Virus record (IMG/VR): IMGVR_UViG_3300037484_000235
Coordinates: 32,001 to 96,000 of that record
DNA from: a virus
Lineage: Duplodnaviria > Caudoviricetes
Reading direction: 5' to 3' (one strand)
Length of the DNA: 64,000 bases
Under the pieces are notes generated by a model that saw only the letters and a program-made list of their open reading frames with translations, had not been told where the DNA came from and searched no databases. Made by a program: the position numbers and the translations under genes. Numbering within the stretch: the stretch's first letter is position 1; each line of letters opens with the position of its first letter. Of the stretch, positions 12,322 to 64,000 are shown piece after piece.

Positions 12322-12855
12322 ATGACTGACGCCGATGACCGATCCACAAATGACGACCTGACTGATGACTACGACCCCAACGACTTAGGGGATCTCCAGT
12401 GTGGTATGATTTCATCCACAAGATCAGCGGTGTGTATTCTGAATCCTGGACATGGGGGTATGCACCGTGTCTTTTCCGTTACAACCCACAGTTTTGGACC
12501 CAGGAAGCCTATCCCATTTCCGGATCTGGAAAACATTAACCCAGGAATCCGAGAGACAGTCAGGCTCCTAAATCAGAATGGCTTCCGGACTACAGATAGT
12601 GGTGACGGAAAGACAGGTGACTATTCGTGTGACCGTCCCTACCCATACGTGTCGATTGCTTCAACCCGTGCGGGGTTGATCCAGGATGCAGACGACATCG
12701 CCTTTCTGTTCTCTGAGCACGGTGTTCAAGTCGGAGAACTCACCGAAGAGGGTGAAGGCCCCTACATCCAGGCGATGTACACCCCTCAGGTAAAAAACTG
12801 CGCAATCATCGACATTCAGAATGTCGATGACAAGCTGTTGGGGCTCGTACCCTAA
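12322..12855 (+). CDS. hypothetical protein
   Basis: 177 aa; GF.T.DSGDG motif. Confidence 0.65.
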   Translation: MTDADDRSTNDDLTDDYDPNDLGDLQCGMISSTRSAVCILNPGHGGMHRVFSVTTHSFGPRKPIPFPDLENINPGIRETVRLLNQNGFRTTDSGDGKTGDYSCDRPYPYVSIASTRAGLIQDADDIAFLFSEHGVQVGELTEEGEGPYIQAMYTPQVKNCAIIDIQNVDDKLLGLVP

Positions 12856-14459
12856 CCCTTGGTGACGTGCCCATCGTAGAAGTGGAAGAAGACCGGGACC
12901 CTCTCGATCCCCAGCTCCGCCGCAATGGCCAGTCGATGATTCCCTTCACCAACCTTGACTCCGCCTTTACGACCGATTTGGAGGTGCACGGTGCTCCCCT
13001 TCTTCCATCCTCGGCTGTTCATACTGTCCATCAGCTCGTCCCATTCATGTGGTTCCAGACGAGCCTTGTCCCGAGTCCAAACGTACTCCCTGTAGGGTAG
13101 TAGCTCAGACAGACGGACCATCACGGGCATGTCGTCCTCGTACATCTTGTCCCCGAGCTTTTGCCAGTTCGCAATCACGTCTCCCAGGCCCGTGTAGTTG
13201 GAGTAGTACCCAGCGGTACGACCACCATGTGTAACAGTGCCCAACGCCGCCCGCACGGCGTCCTGCAAACGGTCTGGTTGGAAGGCGAGCATTGGTGTGC
13301 TCAGCATCGCCTCGCGAGCTAGAGGGGCCAGTGCGCCCCGGTCTCGGCCCTGTAGGTTGAACTCTGTGATGAGGGCCGTGTTGTCGATCGGTGGCTTCTT
13401 GAGCTTCTCGAAGAACTCGTCAGCCTCATCGCTGATCATCCCCGTGGTGATTTCCCGGAGTCTGACTTGTTGAGGCTTCGTCAGGAAAGCTACGGGCTGC
13501 GACCCAAGCCCAAGGTCTGCCAGATCCAGAAGCAACGCCACCGCACGGTTCCCGTTGCTGAACTGCTTTGCCATGTACGAGGCAAACGGAGCCTCACTTT
13601 GGATCATTTCCGAGAGGGTCTCGATCAGGCCCAGGTGAGCCATTGTGAGAAGGGCCCCACGTGCATTAGGGGTGTCCAGAATGTCTTGCACCAAGATCGT
13701 GGCAATCGCCTCCCATGGCATCTTCTTCATCTTGGGGGCGTTACGCCGGACACTGGCCGCAACCTCATCGGTCAGATCAAGCTCGTACTTGATCGAGAAT
13801 TTAATCAGTCTGAGCATACGTGTTGGATCGTCGGAGAATGTTCGGTCCGGATCCAACGGTGTGTGGAGCATTCGCTCTTCGAGGTGCTGCACGCCAAGAC
13901 CCGTAAGGTCGATGACTTCTGCGTAGTCAGGTCCGTTTGCTAGGTCGAGCAGTCTCCAGAGCAGAGAATTGAGCGTGAAGTCGCGTCGATTTATATCCTC
14001 TTCGATGGTGGCTGGTTGGACATCGGTGGGCTTGTAGCCTTTTCCTTTCCCTTCGGCTCCACCGTAGGACTCTTTGCGCGCATTCGCGATTTCCAGAATT
14101 TCACCCTTCAGCGAGTGGCCCTCAAGTTCCCATTCTCCCTTAATTGTCAGTATGACAACCCCATACTGATTGGTTGTGAGATTCGTTGGGGCTGGGATAG
14201 CCTTGGCCAGTTGATTTGCAAACCACTCTGAGTTCTTGCCGAGCGCGATGGAATCTACGACGACGTCCAAATCATTGATTGGGTACTTGGATCCACCAGG
14301 GTCCATCATGAAGTTACGCACGGCCCCACCAACCACGTAAACGTGACTAGCCACACCCAATTCGATTGCTGTGCGAGACAAGAACTTCATCAGCGCCACT
14401 GAGCGTGCATGCGACCCAGCGTTGAGAAAGCGAGTTGCGACTTGAGATGCTTGATCCAT
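12852..14459 (-). CDS. cca: class II tRNA nucleotidyltransferase/poly(A) polymerase (CCA-adding type) fused to C-terminal ParB/sulfiredoxin-like domain
   Basis: VVGGAVR, DLDVVV, RKESY, EDINRRDFTLNSL, FSDDPTRMLR; C-term GEGNHRL..A..LG...VPV; no HD domain seen. Confidence 0.88.
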   Translation of the reverse strand: MDQASQVATRFLNAGSHARSVALMKFLSRTAIELGVASHVYVVGGAVRNFMMDPGGSKYPINDLDVVVDSIALGKNSEWFANQLAKAIPAPTNLTTNQYGVVILTIKGEWELEGHSLKGEILEIANARKESYGGAEGKGKGYKPTDVQPATIEEDINRRDFTLNSLLWRLLDLANGPDYAEVIDLTGLGVQHLEERMLHTPLDPDRTFSDDPTRMLRLIKFSIKYELDLTDEVAASVRRNAPKMKKMPWEAIATILVQDILDTPNARGALLTMAHLGLIETLSEMIQSEAPFASYMAKQFSNGNRAVALLLDLADLGLGSQPVAFLTKPQQVRLREITTGMISDEADEFFEKLKKPPIDNTALITEFNLQGRDRGALAPLAREAMLSTPMLAFQPDRLQDAVRAALGTVTHGGRTAGYYSNYTGLGDVIANWQKLGDKMYEDDMPVMVRLSELLPYREYVWTRDKARLEPHEWDELMDSMNSRGWKKGSTVHLQIGRKGGVKVGEGNHRLAIAAELGIERVPVFFHFYDGHVTKG

Positions 14460-18840: not shown

Positions 18841-18857
18841 GATGTCCTCACCTGTGT

Positions 18858-18887
18858 AACTGGCGAGACTCAGCCGATTACACGATT
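18858..18887 (-). promoter_or_regulatory. repeated promoter AATCGTGTAA-N16-AGTT
   Basis: motif read directly. Confidence 0.75.
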
Positions 18888-19090
18888 CAACGGGCCTTCT
18901 TTTGGAGGCAGTCCCTCAGCCGGGCATCCGCTTCCAGGTAGGCAGCAAAGGCCGCCCCCACGTCCTTGAGGAGAGGTTGAATCTCCGGATCCTCGGGAGT
19001 CACGGAGGCAGCCAGGAAATCAGGACGTACCGCATCCGAAAGGAAAAGAGCACTGAAGTGGGGGGTATCCATGGTGTTAGGGCGGGTCAT
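18887..19090 (-). CDS. hypothetical protein
   Basis: start MTRPNT, ATGA overlap. Confidence 0.6.
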   Translation of the reverse strand: MTRPNTMDTPHFSALFLSDAVRPDFLAASVTPEDPEIQPLLKDVGAAFAAYLEADARLRDCLQKKAR

Positions 19091-33988: not shown

Positions 33989-34876
33989 CTACTTAGACGG
34001 GAAGCTTTCGGCGCGCACTACACCCTCACCAGGGATGTAGTAGCAAGCGTCCCCTTCCTTGATCTGGCTCCCGGATCTTGCACAGATCCCATCGTGTTGA
34101 GCAACCATCTTTTTCCCCTCAGGGGCAGGAGTCACACGTGCGACGGTCTGTGTATCTGAGAGAACAGACCCAATGATCGGCCTCAATTTGTCGATAGCCC
34201 TTTGGTTCTCTTTCGAGGATCCAGATGCAGCGACTGCGGCTATTCTGGCTGAGAGATTCGACAGCCCCTTAGCCAGGGTAGTTCCACACGGACTCGCAAG
34301 GGGGCAGTTAGTACAAGCTGGATCCTTCGAAGACCAGTATCCGTAACAGGGCGTATTGCCCTTGACGAGACTTCGAATGTAAGGATCCTGCATCCAGGCA
34401 GGTGCCCCGGTATCCTCTTGGGGGATTGGGGACCTGACAACAATAGGTTCCAGAGCCACTACAGGAATGGACTCCTTGACGTGTTGTGTGACTGACGGCA
34501 CTTCAGGTGAAACCACTGCCTTGGGCTCCTTCGGTGCCTTGGGCTCCTTCGGTGCCTCAGGTGCAGACTTCAGTCCGTTGAACTTCGTCCAATCCGCGAC
34601 CACTTCCCATCCTAGGGGGGTCAACCTCGTTGCCGTTGGACCGGGACCTGTGATGAGTCCCTTCTTGCGGAGGTGTGAAACCGCGTTGCTCATCGGGATG
34701 AGGACCGCAGGTCGCTTGTCCTTGAGACCCATGCAGTCACGCGTGAGTCCTAGATTGGCTAGTGCAAGATCCGAGAATACCGGGTAAGGATGACACGCAT
34801 CTTTGTCATCCTTACCGAGGGCGGCCAGAGCGTTGCAGATCGGTTTGTGCAGTTCGGAACCAGAAACGTTGGTCAT
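33989..34876 (-). CDS. winged-helix protein with short KxP linker and C-terminal Cys motifs
   Basis: N-terminal domain paralogous to 34956-35492; LRKKGLI...LTPLG; CYG..S..CTNCP..C. Confidence 0.65.
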   Translation of the reverse strand: MTNVSGSELHKPICNALAALGKDDKDACHPYPVFSDLALANLGLTRDCMGLKDKRPAVLIPMSNAVSHLRKKGLITGPGPTATRLTPLGWEVVADWTKFNGLKSAPEAPKEPKAPKEPKAVVSPEVPSVTQHVKESIPVVALEPIVVRSPIPQEDTGAPAWMQDPYIRSLVKGNTPCYGYWSSKDPACTNCPLASPCGTTLAKGLSNLSARIAAVAASGSSKENQRAIDKLRPIIGSVLSDTQTVARVTPAPEGKKMVAQHDGICARSGSQIKEGDACYYIPGEGVVRAESFPSK

Positions 34877-34927: not shown

Positions 34928-34957
34928 AACTCTTGGGATCGCCCTGTTTTCACGATC
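34928..34957 (-). promoter_or_regulatory. promoter variant GATCGTGAAA-N16-AGTT
   Basis: motif read directly. Confidence 0.6.
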
Positions 34958-35492
34958 AGATCGTCGGAACAGTCGGTTCCGCGGATTCCTCAGCTACCAC
35001 AGGGGCGACAGCCTTGGGCGCCTTCGGTGCCTTGGGCGCCTTGGGGGCCTTCGGTGCCTTGGGGGCCTTCGGTGCCTTGGGGGCCTTCGGTGCCTTGGGG
35101 GCCTTCGGTGCCTTGGGTGCCTTGGGTGCCTTGGGTGCCTTGGGCTCCTTCGGTGCCTTCGGTGCCTTGACAGGCATCTTCGGGAGTTCCGCACGTCCCT
35201 CTGCCACATCCCATCCAAGTGAAGTCAACTTGGACTTGCGACCATCGGATACGATGACACCACGCTGACGGAGGCTGAAAAGTGCGTTGCTCATCGGGAT
35301 GAGAACCGCAGCTCTCTTGTCCTTGAGACCCATGCAATCGAGCGTGAGGTTCAGGGACGCCAGTGCGTGATTTGCGAAGTCCATGAACTGGTGCCAGGAA
35401 TCCCTGTCGGCCTTGCCGAGTTCGGCTAGGGAGGCGTAGATTGGCTTGATGAGATCGCCCTGCGAAACCGTCTTTGTCGTTGTATTCGTCAT
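34956..35492 (-). CDS. winged-helix protein with histone-H1-like (KAP)n tail
   Basis: shares DCMGLKDKR.AVLIPMSNA with 33989-34876; about 17 K[A/E]P units. Confidence 0.75.
   Translation of the reverse strand: MTNTTTKTVSQGDLIKPIYASLAELGKADRDSWHQFMDFANHALASLNLTLDCMGLKDKRAAVLIPMSNALFSLRQRGVIVSDGRKSKLTSLGWDVAEGRAELPKMPVKAPKAPKEPKAPKAPKAPKAPKAPKAPKAPKAPKAPKAPKAPKAPKAPKAPKAVAPVVAEESAEPTVPTI
35011..35168 (-). repeat. 9-bp coding tandem repeat (18 units, higher-order 18-bp unit)
   Basis: GCCTT/TCCTT recurs every 9 bp from 35011 to 35164. Confidence 0.95.
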
Positions 35493-35555: not shown

Positions 35556-36743
35556 TCACCAACCATCGGTTAGTGGTCTGTCAGAAATGTGAGAGGTGTC
35601 CCCCTCATTGACCAGGCCCCCCTTGATATGTGGGTCCATGATCCTCTTGACGTTCTCCCTAGTGTCAGCATCTGGCATTCCGTCGAGAACGACCCGGGCG
35701 GCACGTTTGAGAAGTACCTCAAGCGCTACTGTACGTGGTAGGATCTCCAGAAGATCCTCAGCCGCACTTGCCCACGAGCAGACTGTACGGTGGCTCCACT
35801 CACAGTAGACTTCTTCCTTCTCTACACCTTCACGTACTGCAAATGTAGCACGCATCATAGTGCTGATTGCATTCGGAGCACGTTCCGCGAGCAGGGGGAA
35901 CTTTGCTTTCGCGATTGGCTCTTCGTCACGTAGATCCATTGAGTGGAACTGAATCTTACGCTCGAAGCGATCCAAAATGGATGCATCAATTGGATTTGAT
36001 GAGATGCATCGTCCCGTAGTGTCTCCGGCACCCGATGAATTTGCGGTGGCTACGATGGTTGTACCAGGAAACACCGGATAGATTTCACCGGTTGGCCCGC
36101 TGATGCGACCCTGGATTGAATCCAGTATCTGACGAAGCTCCTCCGCTTGTTGGCGTGTGGCCCGATCAAAATCTGAGAGGATAATCAGGTAAGGTACGCG
36201 CCTTCCACTACCGGTCAAGTAACCGTCTCGGAGAGCCTTGAGAAGAACTCCCTCTTCCCACTTCGTTCCTTGGGCGTCAAAGCTTCGTGTGAACTTCCAG
36301 GATTGGAGATCAGCACCCTGGACGACAGAAAAGAGAAGCGAGGGACGCCTGGTCATAGCACAGAGTGCCGACACGGCTGCGTCTTTGCCAACTCCAGGGG
36401 CGCCCCACACCCAAATCGAACGGCATTTCTTGACTGCTACAGCTACGTCCTGTACATCCCTGGCGAGAGGGCCGTGGGTTGGAACAGTGTAATGTGCTGG
36501 CATTGGCAAACAGGCGGATGCAGGAACCTCTATGTCAACTGGAAATGTCACCCCCGCGAACTTCAGAGAGAGCCCCTCTACAGTAGCTTCTTTCCGCTTC
36601 CCTGTGGTGGCCTCCGGGTACTGCACTAGGTACCCATCGAGTGACAGATCGTGTTCGTTGACGAGGTGATCCCCAAGCCAATGGGCTTCTATGCCACAGA
36701 TACGGCACTTGGCGAGACCAGATTGGGTAGCGATCATGTTCAT
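35556..36743 (-). CDS. CobS-like/MoxR-family AAA+ ATPase with N-terminal C2H2 Zn finger
   Basis: CRIC..H..EH; Walker A GAPGVGKD; ATAN..G.GD; LDRF; start may be TTG at 36770. Confidence 0.85.
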   Translation of the reverse strand: MNMIATQSGLAKCRICGIEAHWLGDHLVNEHDLSLDGYLVQYPEATTGKRKEATVEGLSLKFAGVTFPVDIEVPASACLPMPAHYTVPTHGPLARDVQDVAVAVKKCRSIWVWGAPGVGKDAAVSALCAMTRRPSLLFSVVQGADLQSWKFTRSFDAQGTKWEEGVLLKALRDGYLTGSGRRVPYLIILSDFDRATRQQAEELRQILDSIQGRISGPTGEIYPVFPGTTIVATANSSGAGDTTGRCISSNPIDASILDRFERKIQFHSMDLRDEEPIAKAKFPLLAERAPNAISTMMRATFAVREGVEKEEVYCEWSHRTVCSWASAAEDLLEILPRTVALEVLLKRAARVVLDGMPDADTRENVKRIMDPHIKGGLVNEGDTSHISDRPLTDGW

Positions 36744-36797
36744 TTGAGGACTAGATTGAGCGGCAGCCAATCACTGATTGATTCCTTACGCTTTCCA

Positions 36798-36949: not shown

Positions 36950-36969
36950 GGGTGTGTAAGAAGGAGAAG

Positions 36970-39042
36970 ATGACCTCTACTACAGGTAAGGACATGATGG
37001 CAGGTTCGATTTCAGGGGCACGGGTGCGCTCGGGTCATCGGGCAAGCCTGTTTGGGATCTTGGGCAGAAAGATGATCCCCATCCACAGCAGTGGAACCGG
37101 ATTCATGATGCGGGGGCACTTCCCGTTCCGCCAGGTGCTCCAGAAGATAGTTGCGCACTCTAAAATCTCGGTTGACCCCCCCACTGATCTTATCTTCCGC
37201 AAGTGGGCCAGTCAAATCTCCAAGGACTCGAAGGTCAAACCGAGTATCCAAATCGCAGAGACAGGGGACCTGCTCACACGTCGTGAGTACATGGCACTGA
37301 TCGGAGGAGCGAATCATGAGGGGTGGCATCATCTCTACACTGCTCAGGGACCTGTGACAGGGGAAGAGTTGTCTCAATCTATCCTACCTGGCTATAGGGT
37401 CGGTGTACCGTACCACTTGTACCCCGATCTGTTGAGTGCATCCCAAAATGTCTTTGAGGACATCCACATTGAAAGGATTGGATGCGCGGAGTTTCCTGGT
37501 GCCTACACGAAGATGGCGGATCTGGCAGATTTCATTCTGGACCAGGAATCCAAAGCTCTCAAATCGAATCCTGAAACGAAAGAGTCTGCGGCTGGTACTG
37601 CGTTGTGTTTGATCCGTGAAGTTGGTTTCGGCTACAACACGGTGAAAACCAGAGCAGCGATGGATCACTATCGCTCGACGCACCCGGAAATCGTTGATCT
37701 TGTACTCAACGGTGCACTTTCGCCAGTCCTACGTGAGGCCATTCCGGATGTGTCCACACCGGCTGCAATCCTTCAAGCCAAAGAAAACAAGGGATTGTCT
37801 ACAACTCTTGCCCTTCGGTTTATTGCGCTGCTTCACGAACTGGTCGTGGCCCCACCTACCCCACCTGAACCGGAAAATCAAGGGGAGACACAACAGAACG
37901 ATCCAGAACAGGATCCAGAACAGGATGATCTGAAAGATCCGGAATCGAGTAATGGAGACCCGGTAGACCTCAGCAAGGAAGAAAGACCTGGAGGCACCTC
38001 CCCGGACGGTTCTGGTGAGGCTGCGGCGGCGATTCTCCAGTCTATACCCGATGGCGTGTTAGATTATGCGAGTGCTCTAGAGCAGGCTGTCTCAAATGCA
38101 CTCAAAGCGGAGGACAAGACCCAGGAAGCTGGCGAGATGCCCTACCGACCCTACACCACAACTCAAGATCAGACACTCAAACCTACGGAAAATGAGCCTG
38201 AAGCTCGTCTTCTAATCAAGAAGGTCATTGCCGGAACCAAGAGGGAGACATCGTTCCTTCGATCCAAGCTTCGACTCATGTTTCGTGCACTAGAGGATGG
38301 TGCCAGGTTCCATGGTGTTCGAAAAGGGACTGGGCTCTCTGAACGATTTCTGGTGGACACATTGGCTTCAATCCAAGATGGAAAGGACCCCTCTCGGGCT
38401 TTCTACGAGGACTCCACGTCGATGGACACATCGATAGCTGTTTGCATCGTAGTGGATGAGAGTTCCTCAATGTCTAGAAAGCTCAAAGACACAAGCGCAA
38501 TCCTCTACACCCTGTGTCAGTCCCTAGATTCGATTGAGGCTAACTTCTCTGTAGTGGGATTCCGTGACAGAGATATTGGCTATGTTCAGGGGGCGAAGAC
38601 CAATGTCGTTTACCACCGTCACGGTCCTATCACATACGACATTTTCAAGAGTTTTGAAGAAAAGTTCCGTAGCGTTTCATGGCGACTTGGGAACATCAAA
38701 GCAACCGGAGGCACTCCAATGGCCGATGGTATCGAGTTCGCCCTCAACGCTCTTTCAACACGACGGGAGGGGCACCGAATCCTTTTTGTAGTCACTGACG
38801 GTCAACCAAATCCAAACCACAGGCCAATCATTAAGGGTCAAATTCGCCGCGCCCAAGCGGCTGGTATTCTTGTCATCGGTGTGGGACTTGGAAAAGACGC
38901 CAGGTACGTTCAAACAACCTTCCCAGACAACGTGTGGGCCATGACCCTATCGAGTATCCCTGCTCTCCTTGTTGCCAAACTTCACGAAATGGTCAGAAAG
39001 ATTGGTACCTCTAAGCGAGGGATTCGAGTCAAGTCTGTCTGA
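36970..39042 (+). CDS. CobT-like vWA protein (HExxH N-term, acidic linker, MIDAS)
   Basis: NHEGWHH; VVDESSSM; GGTP; VVTDGQP; VIGVGLG. Confidence 0.85.
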   Translation: MTSTTGKDMMAGSISGARVRSGHRASLFGILGRKMIPIHSSGTGFMMRGHFPFRQVLQKIVAHSKISVDPPTDLIFRKWASQISKDSKVKPSIQIAETGDLLTRREYMALIGGANHEGWHHLYTAQGPVTGEELSQSILPGYRVGVPYHLYPDLLSASQNVFEDIHIERIGCAEFPGAYTKMADLADFILDQESKALKSNPETKESAAGTALCLIREVGFGYNTVKTRAAMDHYRSTHPEIVDLVLNGALSPVLREAIPDVSTPAAILQAKENKGLSTTLALRFIALLHELVVAPPTPPEPENQGETQQNDPEQDPEQDDLKDPESSNGDPVDLSKEERPGGTSPDGSGEAAAAILQSIPDGVLDYASALEQAVSNALKAEDKTQEAGEMPYRPYTTTQDQTLKPTENEPEARLLIKKVIAGTKRETSFLRSKLRLMFRALEDGARFHGVRKGTGLSERFLVDTLASIQDGKDPSRAFYEDSTSMDTSIAVCIVVDESSSMSRKLKDTSAILYTLCQSLDSIEANFSVVGFRDRDIGYVQGAKTNVVYHRHGPITYDIFKSFEEKFRSVSWRLGNIKATGGTPMADGIEFALNALSTRREGHRILFVVTDGQPNPNHRPIIKGQIRRAQAAGILVIGVGLGKDARYVQTTFPDNVWAMTLSSIPALLVAKLHEMVRKIGTSKRGIRVKSV

Positions 39043-40034: not shown

Positions 40035-40057
40035 TCCATCTATTGGCCCCTAGAAGC

Positions 40058-40744
40058 ATGTCGAACCTTCGTTCTGGCCTCATCCGCCTCGCTCATAGCA
40101 AGCCAGAGTTTCGGCCTGCGATCCTGCCTCTGCTCAAGGAAGCCGGTTGTGAGAAACTCCCCGAAGGGGGTATGAGGGACAATTGCGAAAAGAAGGTCGA
40201 AGAGGGCAAGAAGGCATCCTCCTACCTCACTGAAGAGCAGTTTCGAGACAACAACCACACGCGCAACATGCGTTATCTAAACACGGCTCTTAAAGCGTTG
40301 TTGACGATTTCACGTTCTGTGAAATCCATTTACACCTCGGATGAGGGGGCACAACCGACGCGAGAGCAGTCGGCAGAGATGCTGATGACGGCTCAAGCCA
40401 TTGCGCTCAATGCTGGGGACATCGTCAAACTGGTGGGGCGTTCATCACGGACCACTAGAAGTAGGTCTTTCACCGCGAGTGCACGCCAAGAACTATTGTC
40501 CAAAACAGCCGCTTCGGAGATCCCTTTTTCGGAACTCCCAGAGCCTCAGATGGAACTCGTGAAGATCGTAGATCTGTCCCCGGTTACCATTTGGGATGGA
40601 GTCCACGGGTACATTGTGTCGTTCAAGAGCAGCTCACAAAGTGGGGCTCGGTTAGAGCGGGACACGCTCAAGAAGATTGTCGACCACAAGGACTTCCGTT
40701 GGATCTCCCCCTCTGGTAGGGGTAGCTTCTACATCGGGATGTGA
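40058..40744 (+). CDS. putative virion-internal protein with LRSxLIRLAH leader
   Basis: MSNLRSGLIRLAHSKPEFRPAILPLLKEAG; KxA junctions. Confidence 0.65.
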   Translation: MSNLRSGLIRLAHSKPEFRPAILPLLKEAGCEKLPEGGMRDNCEKKVEEGKKASSYLTEEQFRDNNHTRNMRYLNTALKALLTISRSVKSIYTSDEGAQPTREQSAEMLMTAQAIALNAGDIVKLVGRSSRTTRSRSFTASARQELLSKTAASEIPFSELPEPQMELVKIVDLSPVTIWDGVHGYIVSFKSSSQSGARLERDTLKKIVDHKDFRWISPSGRGSFYIGM

Positions 40745-41217: not shown

Positions 41218-41859
41218 GTCCGGAGTAGATTCTTCCGCAGGACCGTTGATACCAGACATCTGCGATGCAGTGTCAGCGAGTGCTCTGGGTAGTAACTCCC
41301 CGTACTGCTCAACGGGGAGCAAGAACTTGCCGTCCTTTGTCTTCCCTGAGGCATCAAGTCCCTTGAGGAATTCCCCCATGACCGTGTAGAGGAAGTGCCA
41401 GACCTCGGGATTGCCCTGGGCGACAGGGTCCCCCTTCGCTGCCCAGACGAACTTCTTGGCGCGATTGACCAAGGCGAACATCTCCCGGGGCTTCAGGGAA
41501 CACCACAGGATGGTTCGGGTGCCCGAGGGGGATAGCTGATTCGTCGTGGCATCAAGGTGTGCTTCCAGCACGCGCTTGAAGAGTGCGGTGCGGGTGACGG
41601 TCTTCCCCTCATAGATCTCCGGGAACGCAGGGCTCCACACCCCCTGCTCGTAGGAGGACAGGAGGAAGTTCGATCCGTGAATCAGCCAGAACTCGTAGCC
41701 CGTCTGCGGATTCAAGGTGAAGTGTTCCAGGGAGTGCTTCTTCTTCTCCCGAAACTTGGTGGCTTCGCGGGCCTTTTCGATTTGTCGGTCTTTGGACCTG
41801 GCACTTGCCTTTTTTGCTCGTGTGCCTGCCTTCTGTGCTTTGTTCTTTGACATTCCCAC
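41206..41859 (-). CDS. hypothetical protein
   Basis: 217 aa, basic N-terminus. Confidence 0.6.
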   Translation of the reverse strand: MGMSKNKAQKAGTRAKKASARSKDRQIEKAREATKFREKKKHSLEHFTLNPQTGYEFWLIHGSNFLLSSYEQGVWSPAFPEIYEGKTVTRTALFKRVLEAHLDATTNQLSPSGTRTILWCSLKPREMFALVNRAKKFVWAAKGDPVAQGNPEVWHFLYTVMGEFLKGLDASGKTKDGKFLLPVEQYGELLPRALADTASQMSGINGPAEESTPDSDG

Positions 41860-41888
41860 ACCTTACACCCGGCGTAACGTACAACGTG

Positions 41889-43466
41889 ATGAATCCTGTT
41901 CTTGATCAGCAGAGGGCGTGGGAGCTTCTTTCGAGTGGCGCCCATGAAGTTGCACGCGTCGTGTCCAAGACCTTCGGCCCTGCGGGCGGCAAGGTCATGA
42001 TAGAGAAGGCAGGGTCGGTCCTTGTAACGACTGATGGGGCCGCACTCACACGCGAGACTCAGCTTGACGGTGCGAAGAGACTGGGTGCGACCCTCATCCG
42101 ATCTGCCGCAATCAAGACCGATGAGCAAGTTGGAGATGGGACTTCCACAACGGTGATCTTGGCGGACGCTCTCATCCGGGAGATTGGAAAGAGGGCTTGT
42201 GTGCACGGCTGGGATCCGGTGTGCACGGTAGCTCAAATCCGAGAAGCTCATCTGGAGGCAGAGGGTCAGATTCAGCATATGTCCCGCCTCGCAGATCGTG
42301 AGTGTTTGGATCGGATAGCCCTCATGGCTTCCCATGAAGACCCACTCATTGCCGAGAAGGTAGTTGAGGCGGTGCTTGCAGTAGGCGAGGGCGGGTCCGT
42401 GGTGATCTCGCCCTACGAGGGGACGGGGATTGTCCTTGAGCAGAAGGCCGGACTTTATCTCAATCAAGGGTGGACCTCCTTCGATATGGCACCGGCAGAC
42501 GGATCCACCGAGCGGGAGATGGATGGGCCTCTCGTGGCCGTGTTCCGCCAAGGACTTCGACGGGTGGGTGACATTGCGACTGCGATGGAGCAAGCGAGTC
42601 AGTGGCCGGGTCGTGGTCTCGTGGTGTTTGCGCCCAGTATCCAGGGGGATGCCCTCAAGACCCTCTTGGTCAATGACAAGAAGGGCGTGCTCTCGTGTGT
42701 GGGTGTCGAGTACTCGGGGTCATCTGCGGACCTGGACGACTGGCTTGAGGACATCTCGGCAGTCACCAATTCGATGATCGTGGATACAGGGACAGGGATG
42801 TCCCCTGAGAAGTTCGAGGGGTCGTGGTTGGGTTCCGCTCGAAGAGTGACCCTGACTCGGGAACACACACTCGTCGTCTCCTACCTGGATGGGGATATTC
42901 CCCAGAAGATTGATCTGAGAGTTGCCCAGCTTCGGGCGCGAGCCGAGGTCTCCCCCTACCCCTACGAGAAGGCCAAGCTCACGGAGCGTGCTTCGGCGAT
43001 CGATGGGGGCCTCTGTACGCTGCGGATCGGTGGACTCACCAAGCAGGAGGGTCAGGACCGTCGCTCACGGGTCGAGGATGCCCTCAAGGCTGTGCAGACG
43101 TGTCTGAGGGGCGGCGTGGTTCCTGGAGCGGGCTACGCGCTGTTCAGGGCCTGTGTGTGGCTCCCTCAGACCGAGGGCGGCGTGATACTGGACAGGGCTC
43201 TCATGTCGGTCCTGGGCACGCTGGCGAGCCGGGCGGGGGCAGAGCCTCAGACCGTTTTTCGGGAGGGCATGGAGGTCACTCTGTACGATCCCGATGGGTG
43301 GTACGGGTGGGATCCACTGCTTGGGGATTGGCGAGACTTCTGGGTGACGGCCCCACGAATCGTAGACCCCACTGAAGTCGTGTTGGCAGCTCTTAGGAAT
43401 GCCGTATCCGTTGCTTGTCAGATCGCTTTGTGCGGGGTGGTCCTTGGAGTGCACCCAAAACGATAA
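41889..43466 (+). CDS. groEL: divergent GroEL-like chaperonin
   Basis: TFGPAG, TTDG, GDGTST, GGVVPGAG, IVDPTEV..AL.NA.SVA; no GGM tail. Confidence 0.85.
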   Translation: MNPVLDQQRAWELLSSGAHEVARVVSKTFGPAGGKVMIEKAGSVLVTTDGAALTRETQLDGAKRLGATLIRSAAIKTDEQVGDGTSTTVILADALIREIGKRACVHGWDPVCTVAQIREAHLEAEGQIQHMSRLADRECLDRIALMASHEDPLIAEKVVEAVLAVGEGGSVVISPYEGTGIVLEQKAGLYLNQGWTSFDMAPADGSTEREMDGPLVAVFRQGLRRVGDIATAMEQASQWPGRGLVVFAPSIQGDALKTLLVNDKKGVLSCVGVEYSGSSADLDDWLEDISAVTNSMIVDTGTGMSPEKFEGSWLGSARRVTLTREHTLVVSYLDGDIPQKIDLRVAQLRARAEVSPYPYEKAKLTERASAIDGGLCTLRIGGLTKQEGQDRRSRVEDALKAVQTCLRGGVVPGAGYALFRACVWLPQTEGGVILDRALMSVLGTLASRAGAEPQTVFREGMEVTLYDPDGWYGWDPLLGDWRDFWVTAPRIVDPTEVVLAALRNAVSVACQIALCGVVLGVHPKR

Positions 43467-44747: not shown

Positions 44748-45416
44748 ATGGCTGTTACTTTTCTTGACCTGACGGGGGAATCCCGAAACCCACCACCACC
44801 CAAGACGGCGTCAGATGGCTCCAAGAATCCTATCTGTCGGCTTAAGAACAGCAAAGTTCTCGTTCGAGACCCTAAGACCATCACTGGCATTGGCATCCAC
44901 CAGACCGCTTGTGTCTTTGGACCAGCGGACAACTTGATCAAGAGGCATCGCAGAGCGTTCGACGTGCCATCCCACGCTCTGGCCTTTAGGGATGGTGTGG
45001 TGGCTACCGCGTTCCCGATGCTCTGGTACATGTACCACGGACACCGACTTAACGCCTTCACCTACGGCCTGGAAATCGAGGGACAGTACCCAGGTCTTCT
45101 CGATGACCCAGCGACTCCACAGCGTGAGGACATTCAGACTGCTTGGAAGGGCATCACCCCACTCGATGATCTCACGATTGAGACAGCACGAGCCGCACTC
45201 AAATACCTCTATGAAGAGGGGTTGAAGCTCGGGTCGCCTGTCCAGTATGTATGGGCGCACCGGCAGTCCAACGACAAGAAGATTCACGACCCTGGGGCTG
45301 GGATTTGGAAGCATGTTGTTCTGGACTACGCAGTGGCTGTCCTGGGGCTCAAGGTCGAACCCAACAGGAAGTGGAACGATGGTAATCCTATCCCCGCCGC
45401 ATGGGGAAAGCCATGA
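44748..45416 (+). CDS. N-acetylmuramoyl-L-alanine amidase (Amidase_2), endolysin candidate
   Basis: IGIHQTA, SH, N....GLEIEG, AHRQS...DPG. Confidence 0.8.
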   Translation: MAVTFLDLTGESRNPPPPKTASDGSKNPICRLKNSKVLVRDPKTITGIGIHQTACVFGPADNLIKRHRRAFDVPSHALAFRDGVVATAFPMLWYMYHGHRLNAFTYGLEIEGQYPGLLDDPATPQREDIQTAWKGITPLDDLTIETARAALKYLYEEGLKLGSPVQYVWAHRQSNDKKIHDPGAGIWKHVVLDYAVAVLGLKVEPNRKWNDGNPIPAAWGKP

Positions 45417-46180
45417 CCGTAAAGATCGCACGAGCCAACGTTCGCCCCCAACGCCAGCCAAATCAGTACTCATGCTGTACCACAAGTTTAAGTATGAGCC
45501 TGGAGGCTTTGGGTCTCCCGTTGTCAGAGGTGGGTGTAGAGCAGGTGAACAAGGTGCTCGGAGCCCAGCCTCTTCAGGGCGCAAGTTGGGACCAGGTTGC
45601 GGGCGCGGCTTCGCACTTCGGTTGTAGGGCGACGCTCGTGGTCCCGTCCACTTTGGCCCAGGTACGGGCTTGGACAGATGCGGGAACCCCCGTTCTAATC
45701 GGTTGGAACACGGGTAGCGAGTGGAGCCACGCAAGTCTGATTTTCGACGTGACGGACACCCACGTTTACATTGCGGACCCCAACATCACCAATCCGGAAC
45801 GGACCACACACGTTCTGCCTCACGATGAGTTCTACGAGAAGTGGTACGAGAAGGCGGCACCCGGATATAAGATCCGACGCTCAGCCATGGCAATCGAGCG
45901 TGAGATCACACCAGACGGGAGACAGGTCATGGCCAGTTCTATTCACTCAAAGTTGGCATCCAAGGTTGCAACCCGATTCGTCGCCGGCAAGAAGCTCCCT
46001 GAAGTGTGGGCTGTGATGATGCCCAAGAACACATCGGAACTGGAAGACATTTGGTTCAATGCGGGGGAGTTCATTCAGTCTCAGTTCCAGGACCATGGGG
46101 GTGTTGTTCACCTCTTCGACAATCGTATGCAAGCTAGAGACGTAGCGAAGTTGCTTTTGAAGACTCTTCCGAGAGTCTAA
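45413..46180 (+). CDS. C39-like papain-fold cysteine peptidase plus C-terminal ASKVATRF module
   Basis: Q....SC..TSL; WSHA; YIADPN. Confidence 0.8.
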   Translation: MTVKIARANVRPQRQPNQYSCCTTSLSMSLEALGLPLSEVGVEQVNKVLGAQPLQGASWDQVAGAASHFGCRATLVVPSTLAQVRAWTDAGTPVLIGWNTGSEWSHASLIFDVTDTHVYIADPNITNPERTTHVLPHDEFYEKWYEKAAPGYKIRRSAMAIEREITPDGRQVMASSIHSKLASKVATRFVAGKKLPEVWAVMMPKNTSELEDIWFNAGEFIQSQFQDHGGVVHLFDNRMQARDVAKLLLKTLPRV

Positions 46181-61411: not shown

Positions 61412-61966
61412 ATGAGTAATCCACGACAAGCCATCAATCTCCCGAAAGACGTAGAACGCTACGTCGAAGAGGGAAAAGACCAGGGTCTTACCGAAGACGT
61501 GGCCTGGCCAGTTGCTTGGAGTAGGTACTGCAAAAAGAATCCTGGCAGTGACCACTGCCACAAGTCCAAGGATGAGTATTTTCCTGGGCGAAAGGCTGAG
61601 GACGTGAGTTTAGCAAAGCGTGTGGCACAGCGGTATGCAACGCTCCAGAGCAACTCTGTTGTGGGTAGTCCAATTCGCCAGAGGATCAACTCTGAACTCA
61701 TCCGAGAGGGGATGGACGGTAACACCCGGTTCAAGTCTCCCGGAATGGCGTTGGCGAAAATCAACAGTGTGCTCCAGAAATTCAAGATTGAGTGGGATGA
61801 AGTCATCGATTCTTGGCGATTAAAGCAATCCAAAGGTCAAATGATGGTGACCTTGGCTACGCAGACAGCAGACCCTTTCTCCCCTGTTTCAATCGAGAAC
61901 ACAGCACTGTCGTTCCACTGGGACACACTTGAGTCTGGCATTGAAGTCATTGCCTATCTAGGATGA
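61412..61966 (+). CDS. putative virion protein (ChaB-like N-terminus, AKRVAQRY module)
   Basis: LP..V....E..AW.VAWS.Y; shared AxxVAxR[F/Y] motif. Confidence 0.55.
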   Translation: MSNPRQAINLPKDVERYVEEGKDQGLTEDVAWPVAWSRYCKKNPGSDHCHKSKDEYFPGRKAEDVSLAKRVAQRYATLQSNSVVGSPIRQRINSELIREGMDGNTRFKSPGMALAKINSVLQKFKIEWDEVIDSWRLKQSKGQMMVTLATQTADPFSPVSIENTALSFHWDTLESGIEVIAYLG

Positions 61967-61968
61967 TC

Positions 61969-63072
61969 ATGTCAAATCTTCGATCTAAGCTCATCCGGCT
62001 TGCCCACGCCAACCCAGAGTTGCGTGCAGATCTCCTGCCCCTCTTGAAGAAGATCGCAGGGGAAGAGGATCCGAGAGTTCAAGGTCTCAGCTCAGCAGAT
62101 CGAAAGGTCTACGATCGGTGGCTCTCCGAGGGGGAACCCGAGCTTGCGGACCGTTGGCTCAACAGGGTCTCCCCCATCGAGGATTCTAGCTCTGTGCTGT
62201 GGGACAAGATTGACGCCATCGTGAAGAGTGCACGAGAACGCTCAATGAAAGAGGGAAAGACTGTCTGGAAAGATAACACACCCCAGCACCTTCCCCTGTT
62301 CCGGAAGTACCTTGAAGAGGGCCTGAAAAAGGTCTTCCCTGGGGTGTCTATCAAGCGACAGATTGACCACGTTGTTCATGACCCGCAGGATAGATTCAAG
62401 ACACGCATGGATATCACGGACTACCTCCACAGGTATCTGCAAGGTAACCCAGCGAAGTTCGCAAGTGACAAAGAGGCGGGCCTTCCCCGTTCGACCTACC
62501 TACCGAAGGACAACGACACCCTCACTGAGCGCATCAATACTCCAGAAGGCCTGGACATCTGGACTTGGGAGATGCCAATTAGAGGAAACCCAGCCTATAG
62601 TGCCATCGCTTTCGCTGGCAAAGCTGACAAGCCTCTTTGGCAGTTCAACTACTCAGATTTCTCACGACGAGAGCGCCAGATTCAAGACACCATCAAGAAC
62701 TACGAGGCCGGTGCTGAGGCCAAGCGCAAGCGCCAGGAAGAGCGCAAGCAGTTCCAGCACGGACTCCAAGTAGGGGACATTCTTGTGGCCTCGTGGGGCT
62801 ATGACCAAACAAATGTCAACTGGTACGCCGTAGTCGGGGTGCCTACCGTAAAGATGGTTCTGGTACGAGAGATTGGATCCAAGATCATCTCTTCCGATGG
62901 GTCTGGATCAGACAGAGTTGTCCCAGACCCCAGTAGGCCCATTGGCAGTGTTCTGAGACGCATTCCAGGAGGCACCGCAGGAAATCCCAGGGTCAAGATT
63001 GAAGACAGCATAGTGGCCCACAAGTGGGAGGGGAGGCCTGAGCGTGCAACTTCTAGTGGTTGGGGGCACTGA
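61969..63072 (+). CDS. putative virion-internal protein with LRSxLIRLAH leader
   Basis: MSNLRSKLIRLAHANPELRADLLPLLKKIAG; internal KFAS/KEAG junctions; F..GDILV.SWGYDQTNV.WY module. Confidence 0.7.
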   Translation: MSNLRSKLIRLAHANPELRADLLPLLKKIAGEEDPRVQGLSSADRKVYDRWLSEGEPELADRWLNRVSPIEDSSSVLWDKIDAIVKSARERSMKEGKTVWKDNTPQHLPLFRKYLEEGLKKVFPGVSIKRQIDHVVHDPQDRFKTRMDITDYLHRYLQGNPAKFASDKEAGLPRSTYLPKDNDTLTERINTPEGLDIWTWEMPIRGNPAYSAIAFAGKADKPLWQFNYSDFSRRERQIQDTIKNYEAGAEAKRKRQEERKQFQHGLQVGDILVASWGYDQTNVNWYAVVGVPTVKMVLVREIGSKIISSDGSGSDRVVPDPSRPIGSVLRRIPGGTAGNPRVKIEDSIVAHKWEGRPERATSSGWGH

Positions 63073-64000
63073 TGACATACAACGAAGCTGTGGCCCTCCA
63101 GGAGGCCCTCCTAAAAGAGCTTCGCAAGGAGGCTGTTAGGAAGGATAGATACGAGCCAGTCCTGTCCACTCCACGCAAGATTCCATTCAAACCCAAGAAG
63201 TACTTGAGTGGTGGAGATCTGGTCCTGCGTCGAATAGCACTCTCGGCTAAGCGAGATGCAAGACATCAGAATGAGACTCGGGCTATGGACCTGCCATTAC
63301 CCGAACGGTACACCAACGAGATCAACCATGCCCTCGGATACAGCACCCTTCCATCGGAGCGCCAAGAGATTCTTGTGGAAGCCACTCGTGTGTACAACGA
63401 GAAGTTCAACTCAGTGATCCAGGAAGAGGCCCAGATGAAGACCGCAGCAGAAGTCACCAAGTCCACCGTCAAGTCCTGGATGAAGAAGAACGTGGCCGAC
63501 CACGTTGATCCCAAGACTGACGAAGTCAATGCCACAGGTCTTGCTGAGGCAGCTGCCCAGGAGTTCGACAAGAAGGATCTTGGGGGATGGCTCGACGACG
63601 AGAGTCATTGGGTTTGGGAGATAGCATCAGACGTGGCTGAGGCCCATGAGAAGTCCTCGAAGAAGGCAGGCAGACTTCGCTCTGGTCTGATCCATCTCGC
63701 ACACGCTAATCCTGATCTGCGCCCACACCTACTTCCGCTTTTGGTGCGAAAGGAGTCGAACTTCGTCCAACCCATCCTTGAAGGGATGACACTCACGATC
63801 CTTGGAAAGCCACACAAGGTGATGGGGGTGACTCGCGGGACGGAGTGGGATCTGTACTCATTTGATGATGGGTTCAGCTTCAGAAACATCAAAAGCAATA
63901 GGGAAGACCCTGGATCCAAAGTGGGGGGTGACCTCTACAAGAATGGCAAGCCAGTAGGAAAGCACCTGTCCCCCATAGAAGTGAAGAGGATTCTCCAAGA
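63072..64000 (+). CDS. putative modular virion protein, truncated by window end (not in ORF track)
   Basis: hand-read open frame MTYNEAV...; internal LRSGLIHLAHANPDLRPHLLPLL at 63675-63743. Confidence 0.75.
   Translation, partial: MTYNEAVALQEALLKELRKEAVRKDRYEPVLSTPRKIPFKPKKYLSGGDLVLRRIALSAKRDARHQNETRAMDLPLPERYTNEINHALGYSTLPSERQEILVEATRVYNEKFNSVIQEEAQMKTAAEVTKSTVKSWMKKNVADHVDPKTDEVNATGLAEAAAQEFDKKDLGGWLDDESHWVWEIASDVAEAHEKSSKKAGRLRSGLIHLAHANPDLRPHLLPLLVRKESNFVQPILEGMTLTILGKPHKVMGVTRGTEWDLYSFDDGFSFRNIKSNREDPGSKVGGDLYKNGKPVGKHLSPIEVKRILQ

Follow-up and report, generated by a model that had tools for sequence, protein, structure and literature searches.

A tRNA nucleotidyltransferase fused to a ParB/sulfiredoxin-fold module carries a short mobile peptide tag in an uncultivated huge phage

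An HD tail is absent from most class II CCA-adding enzymes, and its absence is unusual only against the E. coli type of the enzyme. RNA-repair proteins of the 'Swiss Army Knife' type, represented in Pfam by HAD_SAK_1, were reportedly described by Burroughs and Aravind in 2016. Phage polyvalent proteins unite many effector domains in variable orders, and their injection has been predicted (Iyer et al., 2017, PMC5512222). Here we describe a gene on the minus strand of a 64,000-nucleotide stretch (the window; positions 32001-96000 of a 252,521-bp IMG/VR virus contig, CheckV completeness 57%) from an uncultivated huge phage, the product of which joins a class II tRNA nucleotidyltransferase to a module with the ParB/sulfiredoxin (Srx) fold and bears near its N-terminus a short peptide, hereafter the tag, that recurs in unrelated proteins of the same phage group. 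While phage tRNA-repair enzymes and polyvalent effectors are already known, the tag is a new element: a short, mobile, clade-wide peptide at module ends was not found in the searchable literature, and literature searches on the tag motif and on DUF5661 returned nothing relevant. We see about an even chance that the protein is a two-module enzyme equipped with a docking or targeting tag that brings enzymes to a shared partner.

Two modules and their junction

The coding sequence (CDS; Table 1) is preceded by a GGTGGAG Shine-Dalgarno sequence 6 nt upstream of its ATG, and the N-terminus of its product reads MDQASQVATRF. The database gene call (P0004), of 484 amino acids (aa) with a start at Met52, begins too late and would cut off the conserved GGAVRN motif; the longer, 535-aa form is supported because its N-terminus aligns with those of homologues. 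The Pfam PolyA_pol head (PF01743) was matched at residues 40-198 (E 1e-13), and PHROG 2244 (tRNA nucleotidyltransferase) was matched with an E-value of 3e-24. The head motifs G44-G-A-V-R-N49 and D63-L-D65 are accompanied by R158-R-D160, which is motif B (RRD), and by D210-D-P-T-R214, which is motif D, the (E/D)DxxR nucleotide template; in an alignment of 55 sequences of the nucleotidyltransferase family (A1), G44, G45, R48, D63 and D65 as well as R158, R159, D211, T213 and R214 are invariant. In the AlphaFold2 (AF2) model, whose predicted local distance difference test (pLDDT) score is mostly above 90 from about residue 11 to residue 411, the head is followed by a helical neck, body and tail, with the last helix at residues 395-411. 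The top 46 Foldseek matches in the PDB are class II CCA-adding, A-adding and CC-adding enzymes together with bacterial poly(A) polymerase (best match 5hc9, E 8e-12; 3h38 and 6qy6 were also matched), and the alignments to full-length CCA enzymes run over 430-495 columns, that is, over the whole head-neck-body-tail. Pfam and NCBIfam scans found no HD domain in the protein (no match to PF01966), while homologues P0088 and P0099 do carry one. The NCBIfam CCA/PcnB equivalog models scored at best 72-73 bits, below their cut-offs of 306-439; the enzyme belongs to a divergent phage clade and not to the equivalog. Among the GenBank phages searched, there was no close relative of either the nucleotidyltransferase or the ParB-like module.

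When residues 412-535 were searched against 1.84 billion representatives, the second module proved to belong to a family of 335 representative clusters, many of them stand-alone proteins of 120-200 aa. Modelled by AF2 with an alignment of 68 family members (A2), it reached a pLDDT of 96 and a predicted template modelling (pTM) score of 0.87, and its top 50 PDB fold matches are all ParB/Srx superfamily members, namely KorB, ParB, Noc, sulfiredoxin, SerK, SbnI and PadC (best E 8.5e-4; template modelling score by query 0.41-0.49), in agreement with fold searches of AFDB and the ESM Atlas. Pfam and a single-sequence PDB search with the C-terminal module gave nothing, and only the family profile and the fold search matched: the best PDB match of the profile was SbnI, at the G-x-H-R motif (E 0.014), whereas Pfam ParB_N did not match this protein and matched 6 of the 68 relatives weakly (best E 2.6e-4). 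Within E505-G-N-H-R509 the last four residues (G506, N507, H508 and R509) are invariant in the 68 family members and E505 is nearly so, and this motif corresponds to the phosphate-binding GxxR/GCHR motif of ParB and Srx. The module is nevertheless neither a partition ParB nor a sulfiredoxin, because it lacks the helix-turn-helix and C-terminal dimerisation domains of the former (the protein ends ~18 residues past the N-domain core) and the catalytic Cys of the latter, FGGCHR being replaced by GEGNHR with an invariant Asn; both identities were rejected on these grounds. It is probably an NTP-binding unit.

RTAG is the true boundary between the two modules. Among relatives of the second module that stand alone, the sequence opens shortly ahead of a conserved YY, as in P0206 with MAGYY, and the closest syntenic relative, contig L013, 82% identical, keeps both the dCTP deaminase gene upstream and the convergent gene downstream and encodes a nucleotidyltransferase with 80% aa identity over 418 residues. 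Homology to L013 stops at window position 13242 and resumes at 12855, and therefore ~385 nt, corresponding to the whole second module, are extra in this phage. A fairly recent in-frame fusion has added the ParB-like module to the 3' end of the nucleotidyltransferase gene. The preliminary description of this DNA had read the gene as that of a CCA-adding enzyme without the usual HD tail, followed across an RTAG junction by a ParB/sulfiredoxin-like domain with the motif GEGNHRL. Both domain assignments hold, the first for a complete class II enzyme, and so does the junction, on the strength of the AF2 model, the L013 gap and the MAGYY start; the HD domain is indeed missing, as is normal for enzymes of this class. 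The survey of homologues for the fusion, which had been suggested at the same time, showed that nucleotidyltransferases fused to ParB-like modules recur in distant lineages (P0013, P0081, P0087, P0117 and the 2970-aa P0253), and in one protein the order is reversed (P0332). Other relatives hold in the same C-terminal slot members of the phosphoesterase/phosphatase families 2H, HD and HAD_SAK_1, or DUF5661 or InPase. That a CCA-type enzyme is repeatedly paired with a ParB/Srx NTP-binding module, which thus fills a slot held in relatives by HD, 2H or HAD phosphoesterases, points to a putative RNA-end-metabolism activity of that fold.

A peptide tag at module ends and joints

The core of the tag reads (S/L/M)(A/P/T)x(R/K)-V-A-x-R-(F/Y/W)-(L/M/I). 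It is a short amphipathic basic peptide that as a helix would line up V, A, the aromatic residue and L along a single face, flanked by the two basic residues. The preliminary description took it for a shared leader, having noticed that the N-terminus of the nucleotidyltransferase resembles ASKVATRF in a C39-like peptidase (45956-45979) and AKRVAQRY in a further open reading frame (ORF). These matches are real and exceed chance; both, however, are internal, at residue 186 of 259 and residue 86 of 202, respectively, and the tag is not strictly N-terminal.

Tags were counted with a position-specific scoring matrix (PSSM) built from the tag copies of the nucleotidyltransferase family, with thresholds of at least 12 bits for this genome and at least 13 bits for 75 related IMG/VR huge-phage loci, which were retrieved with an alignment query (a single-protein query retrieved none). 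The ORFs of this genome hold 11 tags against a shuffle mean of 0.6 (max 6 of 200), and the unique ORFs of the 75 loci hold 117 against 4.0. Two sets independent of the matrix gave the same picture, with 32 tags in 81 C39 peptidase homologues (shuffle mean 0.2) and 21 in 148 ParB-like representatives (shuffle mean 0.5). N-terminal copies occur in 47 of 119 nucleotidyltransferase homologues, usually 5-15 residues from the N-terminus, so that the condition under which the preliminary description would have been refuted, a leader that is not conserved, does not apply, although the count for this family, from which the PSSM was trained, is circular. Other nucleotidyltransferases lack an N-terminal tag and carry it at the extreme C-terminus instead (P0051, P0053, P0060, P0091, P0111, P0113 and P0119; examples end in ...RRVATRFMSFST or ...ERVAARFKG), while multi-domain relatives have it at domain joints and often also at the C-terminus. 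Similarly, 30 of the 81 C39 homologues are tagged just after the peptidase domain or at the C-terminus. Across the 75 loci the tag prefers the termini, 30% of copies being N-terminal against 9% expected and 17% C-terminal against 6.7% expected, with half of all copies internal. The codons of the tag differ between the copies in this genome; selection therefore acts on the peptide.

No fixed motif follows the tag: small residues are weakly preferred there, with no fixed pair. An earlier idea, that the tag followed by GG or AG forms a double-glycine cleavage site for the C39 peptidase, was rejected for this reason. A single co-folding run that paired the C39 domain (residues 1-175) with residues 1-40 of the nucleotidyltransferase scored 0.02 and weighs neither way.

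At the joint of the fused proteins, P0013 reads GRVASHY-LVS-GYY, P0081 and P0087 read (K/R)VAGYY and the present protein reads GRTAGYY. The GYY of RTAGYY belongs to the ParB-like module, and RTAGYY lacks the invariant Arg of the tag. To judge by sequence, the residues before GYY are possibly a decayed tag copy that has lost this Arg, which would fit the fusion of two separately tagged modules and the decay of a redundant internal copy; RTAG does not suggest a maintained cleavage site.

The carriers of the tag in this genome include, besides the nucleotidyltransferase, the C39-like peptidase, an M78-like HExxH protein, a PHROG 29287 protein, a protein that combines HAD_SAK_1 with topoisomerase IB, and a protein with two tandem tags, whereas the terminase, the portal, the protease, the scaffold candidate and the capsid protein of the same genome have no copy. 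The HAD-topoisomerase protein, of 1124 aa, has its gene between those for portal and prohead protease (genome 153591-156965, locus L006) and consists of HAD_SAK_1 (residues 25-162), a eukaryotic-type topoisomerase IB (199-398), an RVSTRY tag at residue 492 and ~600 further unassigned residues. Topoisomerase IB is present in every giant tagged protein examined in relatives, where tagged proteins of 1100-3100 aa combine it with InPase, RNA ligase, 2H, GNAT, peptidases and nucleotidyltransferase, and in the multi-enzyme proteins of 2000-3100 aa the tags mark the joints. ART and zincin peptidase domains further widen the set in ParB-like relatives of 1200-3200 aa. Altogether the homologues join 2H, HD, HAD_SAK_1, DUF5661, InPase, topoisomerase IB, RNA ligase, GNAT, ART and peptidase modules in variable orders. 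The homologue of the tagged protein g172 in Agrobacterium phage Atu_ph07 is without the tag, so that the search for a cultured phage with virion proteomics to which the tag could be tied gave none.

Several further observations were made. In the tandem-tag protein, of 270 aa (genome 173778-174590, locus L008), the two tags lie 20 residues apart (SMASRVARRYLLVQGV / SMESRVSRRYLLAQGV) and the N-terminal half has no family matches; it may serve as an adaptor, or else represent a heavily loaded cargo. A 2805-aa polyvalent protein of a related phage (locus L083:8213-16627) has its nucleotidyltransferase module split by a LAGLIDADG intein, with 2H, topoisomerase IB and GNAT following. A second mobile peptide of ~25 aa, NLRSxLIRLAHxxPELRxxLLPLLK, lies in the window at 40043-40135, 61963-62046 and about 63660-63745, that is, at the N-termini of ORFs 40043-40744 and 61963-63072 and inside ORF 63060-63998, and is also found in the genome ORFs 152515, 168965, 201679-202749 (minus strand), 209810, 216131 and 217375; one of its carriers directly follows the portal gene and its placement, as with the RVAxRF tag, is not restricted to N-termini. 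This peptide may mark a second cargo class or a second destination.

Table 1. Coordinates of the features under discussion. Positions are those of the window unless marked 'genome'.
Feature	Position	Strand	Basis or remark
Whole CDS, 535 aa	12855..14459; ATG 14459; stop 12852-12854	(-)	tag + class II nucleotidyltransferase + ParB/Srx-like module
N-terminal tag copy ASQVATRFLN, residues 4-13	14421..14450	(-)	PSSM 22.3 bits
Class II tRNA nucleotidyltransferase module, residues 17-411	13227..14411	(-)	PF01743, PHROG 2244, AF2, Foldseek, alignment A1
RTAG junction, residues 414-417, inter-module linker	13209..13220	(-)	AF2, alignments, relative L013, stand-alone P0206
ParB/sulfiredoxin-fold module, residues 418-535	12855..13208	(-)	AF2, Foldseek, profile match to SbnI
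E505-G-N-H-R509 motif	12933..12947	(-)	invariant columns of A2; aligned to SbnI DGVHR
Tag copy LASKVATRFVA, residues 185-195 of C39-like peptidase	45953..45985	(+)	gene 45401-46180, directly after peptidase domain
Tag copy LAKRVAQRYAT	61610..61642	(+)	ORF 61358/61412-61966, between N- and C-terminal parts
Nearest co-oriented promoter-like element	18847..18893	(-)	4.4 kb upstream of CDS, same gene run
Terminase large subunit	genome 148081-149922		PHROGs
Portal	genome 150512-152212		PHROGs
Prohead protease	genome 158327-159844		PHROGs
Major head protein	genome 162035-162913		PHROGs

Genomic setting and candidate roles of the tag

The nucleotidyltransferase-ParB gene (genome position 44.9-46.5 kb) stands at the end of a long minus-strand gene run or operon and meets a convergent plus-strand gene, the stops of the two overlapping; a dCTP deaminase gene lies upstream and nucleotide-metabolism genes adjoin. 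A repeated promoter-like element, AATCGTGTAAT-N17-CCGTTAC-N3-GGTGAG, the GGTGAG part of which may be a ribosome-binding site, is present in 21 copies, all at genome 14.6-113 kb (~15 of them in the window, between 3406 and 60491), always co-oriented with the downstream genes and, by the whole-genome count, absent from the structural half. As the preliminary description had stated, no copy stands directly upstream of the gene, yet the gene lies inside the element-bearing region (Table 1). The head genes were located with PHROGs, after the Pfam models for T4 Gp23 and the S77 protease had given no match in the genome, the controls being silent too. The contig also holds 46 tRNA genes (genome 102336-116928, starting ~6.3 kb past the window end), which cover nearly all amino acids. 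Some 36 of these 46 have an encoded CCA end, whereas about ten, including Gln-CTG, Trp, Arg-CCT, Gly-TCC, Leu-AAG and Thr-TGT, are without a complete 3'-CCA and would therefore need a CCA-adding enzyme.

The neighbourhood of the C39-like peptidase gene contains a MoxR-like AAA+ ATPase (35556-36770, minus strand), a 696-aa protein with no function assigned (36952-39042) and a phage GroEL-type chaperonin (41805-43466), so that this region is not a virion module. Within the minus-strand ORF 34956-35492 we also noted a 9-nt tandem repeat, GCCTTSGGK, in ~20 copies (34984-35195), so that the encoded protein should hold a repeated tripeptide; positions 34491-34567 contain a related run of lesser length.

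We propose that the nucleotidyltransferase most likely restores or finishes the 3'-CCA ends of host tRNAs and of those from the phage's own 46 tRNA genes, and that the ParB-like unit, a module also found as a stand-alone gene and as part of giant polyvalent proteins, was here fused to it recently. This phage group fits many unrelated enzyme modules with the tag, either terminally or where gene fusion has left a joint, and the tag would act as a docking or targeting peptide, with one copy to each module, by which the enzymes are brought to a shared partner. We infer such a role because the tag moves between termini within one enzyme family, because there is about one good copy per module and because the shell proteins are devoid of it. 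The capsid interior, with the tag serving in cargo loading, would be the leading candidate for the partner and the co-assembly of split modules the second; the capsid leads because of the overlap with polyvalent proteins predicted to be injected (PMC5512222) and because the tagged topoisomerase IB gene lies inside the head module. More specifically, the tag might be a position-independent cargo-loading peptide that binds a head component and loads counter-defence enzymes into the capsids of a widespread uncultivated huge-phage clade, a proposal that we hold only tentatively, and the cargo set that it would imply (tRNA nucleotidyltransferase, ParB-like modules, topoisomerase IB, peptidases and giant polyvalent proteins) is to be taken as equally tentative.

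Several observations weigh against the docking reading or its capsid version. No partner of the tag was identified, and a fixed cleavage motif after the tag was not found. The enrichment of tagged genes in the head module is not significant (3/11, p = 0.15), ~100 kb separates the nucleotidyltransferase-ParB gene from the terminase, portal, protease and capsid genes (148-163 kb), and this gene sits inside the promoter-bearing, non-structural region. In the AF2 model a long N-terminal helix (residues 3-34) begins with the tag, so that a partly structural role could apply, and the circular count for the nucleotidyltransferase family noted above has to be set apart from the independent ones. As regards the enzyme itself, its nucleotide specificity (CCA, A or poly(A)) is not readable from sequence, and the ParB-like module is without an assigned function.

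Three other explanations have to be considered. The preliminary description proposed that the tag is a capsid-targeting leader and that the protein is loaded into the prohead, cut at RTA into two enzymes and injected with the DNA, so that tRNA repair could precede phage gene expression. This scenario of packaging, cleavage and injection is plausible but unproven, and we regard the leader as unlikely. The tag is conserved and common to unrelated enzymes, the module network matches that of the polyvalent proteins predicted to be injected (PMC5512222), the gene of the tagged HAD-topoisomerase IB protein lies between those of portal and protease, the shell proteins are tag-free, and the scaffold candidate is extremely acidic while the tag is basic; as opposed to a T4-type leader, however, the tag is also C-terminal and internal, the supposed cleavage site lacks the invariant Arg and runs into the GYY of the ParB-like module, and the closest relatives are single-module proteins. 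The position of the gene among promoter elements that are missing from the structural half, and the insignificant head-module enrichment, count against the leader as well. That the protein is instead an ordinary cytoplasmic enzyme for tRNA maturation or repair, with a ParB-like module fused by chance and a motif that is a helix cap or linker without a partner in trans, would agree with the location of the gene in the non-structural promoter-bearing region beside nucleotide-metabolism genes, with the 46 tRNA genes, some lacking an encoded CCA, with the absence of the fusion from the closest relative and with the inclusion of the tag in the N-terminal helix of the AF2 model. We consider this improbable, since a passive linker would neither keep R-V-A-x-R-aromatic across unrelated families nor move between N- and C-terminus within one enzyme family, and nucleotidyltransferase-ParB fusions recur in several distant lineages in both orders.

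The least probable of the explanations, in our judgement, is that a phage protease (C39-like or prohead) recognises the tag and cuts polyvalent polyproteins into modules, terminal copies being leftovers of gene fission. The tags at the joints of the 2000-3100-aa multi-enzyme proteins, the tagging of the group's C39-like peptidases right behind the catalytic domain and the frequency of peptidase modules in the same network are all in line with such a site, but orthologues of 40-80% identity strongly conserve the N-terminal copies that lie 5-10 residues from the start, as they would not a leftover, and neither a double glycine nor any other fixed pair of small residues follows the tag.

If the docking or cargo signal that we favour is true, it would allow a sequence-only listing of the enzymes that huge phages assemble or deliver together, would provide a handle for partner pull-downs and could yield a tag for loading foreign proteins; should the cargo-loading reading apply, the injected proteome of these phages would be readable from sequence alone.

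Comparison with known enzymes, polyvalent proteins and targeting peptides

Akin to the class II CCA- or A-adding enzymes of Thermotoga maritima (5hc9/3h38), Planococcus (6qy6), Geobacillus (1miv) and Aquifex (4wc2/1vfg), which it matches structurally over the full length, the nucleotidyltransferase has the Pol-beta head with GGxVR and DxD, followed by RRD, (E/D)DxxR and the helical neck-body-tail. It is, however, only 15-20% identical to the solved enzymes, has between its head motifs a long loop rich in Gly and Lys (about residues 131-146) and adds the N-terminal tag and the C-terminal ParB/Srx module. As opposed to the E. coli-type Cca, in which the nucleotidyltransferase is combined with an HD phosphohydrolase, it has no C-terminal HD domain. 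The second module has the fold and the strand-G-x-H-R-helix phosphate-binding motif of the ParB/Srx superfamily (ParB/KorB/Noc, sulfiredoxin, SerK/SbnI and DdrB-like ParB), whose members are likewise found in polyvalent proteins with ART and zincin peptidase domains (PMC5512222), and differs from them in its family-specific N-terminal YY, R-E-Y and Trp motifs.

The module kinds assembled in this phage group (nucleotidyltransferase, 2H, HD, HAD_SAK_1, InPase, GNAT, ART, peptidases and ParB, in many orders) are those of the polyvalent and 'Swiss Army Knife' proteins. The present protein is distinguished from these by having two modules only and no peptidase, and by the distance of its gene from the head genes; a location among late or head genes, as expected of polyvalent proteins, is seen for the tagged HAD-topoisomerase IB gene and not for the nucleotidyltransferase-ParB gene. 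A short tag at module ends was not found in the accessible literature on polyvalent proteins.

As working analogies to the tag we turn to the T4 capsid targeting sequence, to the loading peptides of encapsulins and microcompartments, and to the docking domains of split polyketide synthases and non-ribosomal peptide synthetases, although the tag resembles none of them in sequence. The T4 signal is confined to the N-terminus, from which the prohead protease removes it, whereas the phage tag is C-terminal in 17% of copies and internal in half. Like such targeting peptides, the tag is short, probably helical, common to unrelated proteins, placed at termini or in linkers and conserved as a peptide.

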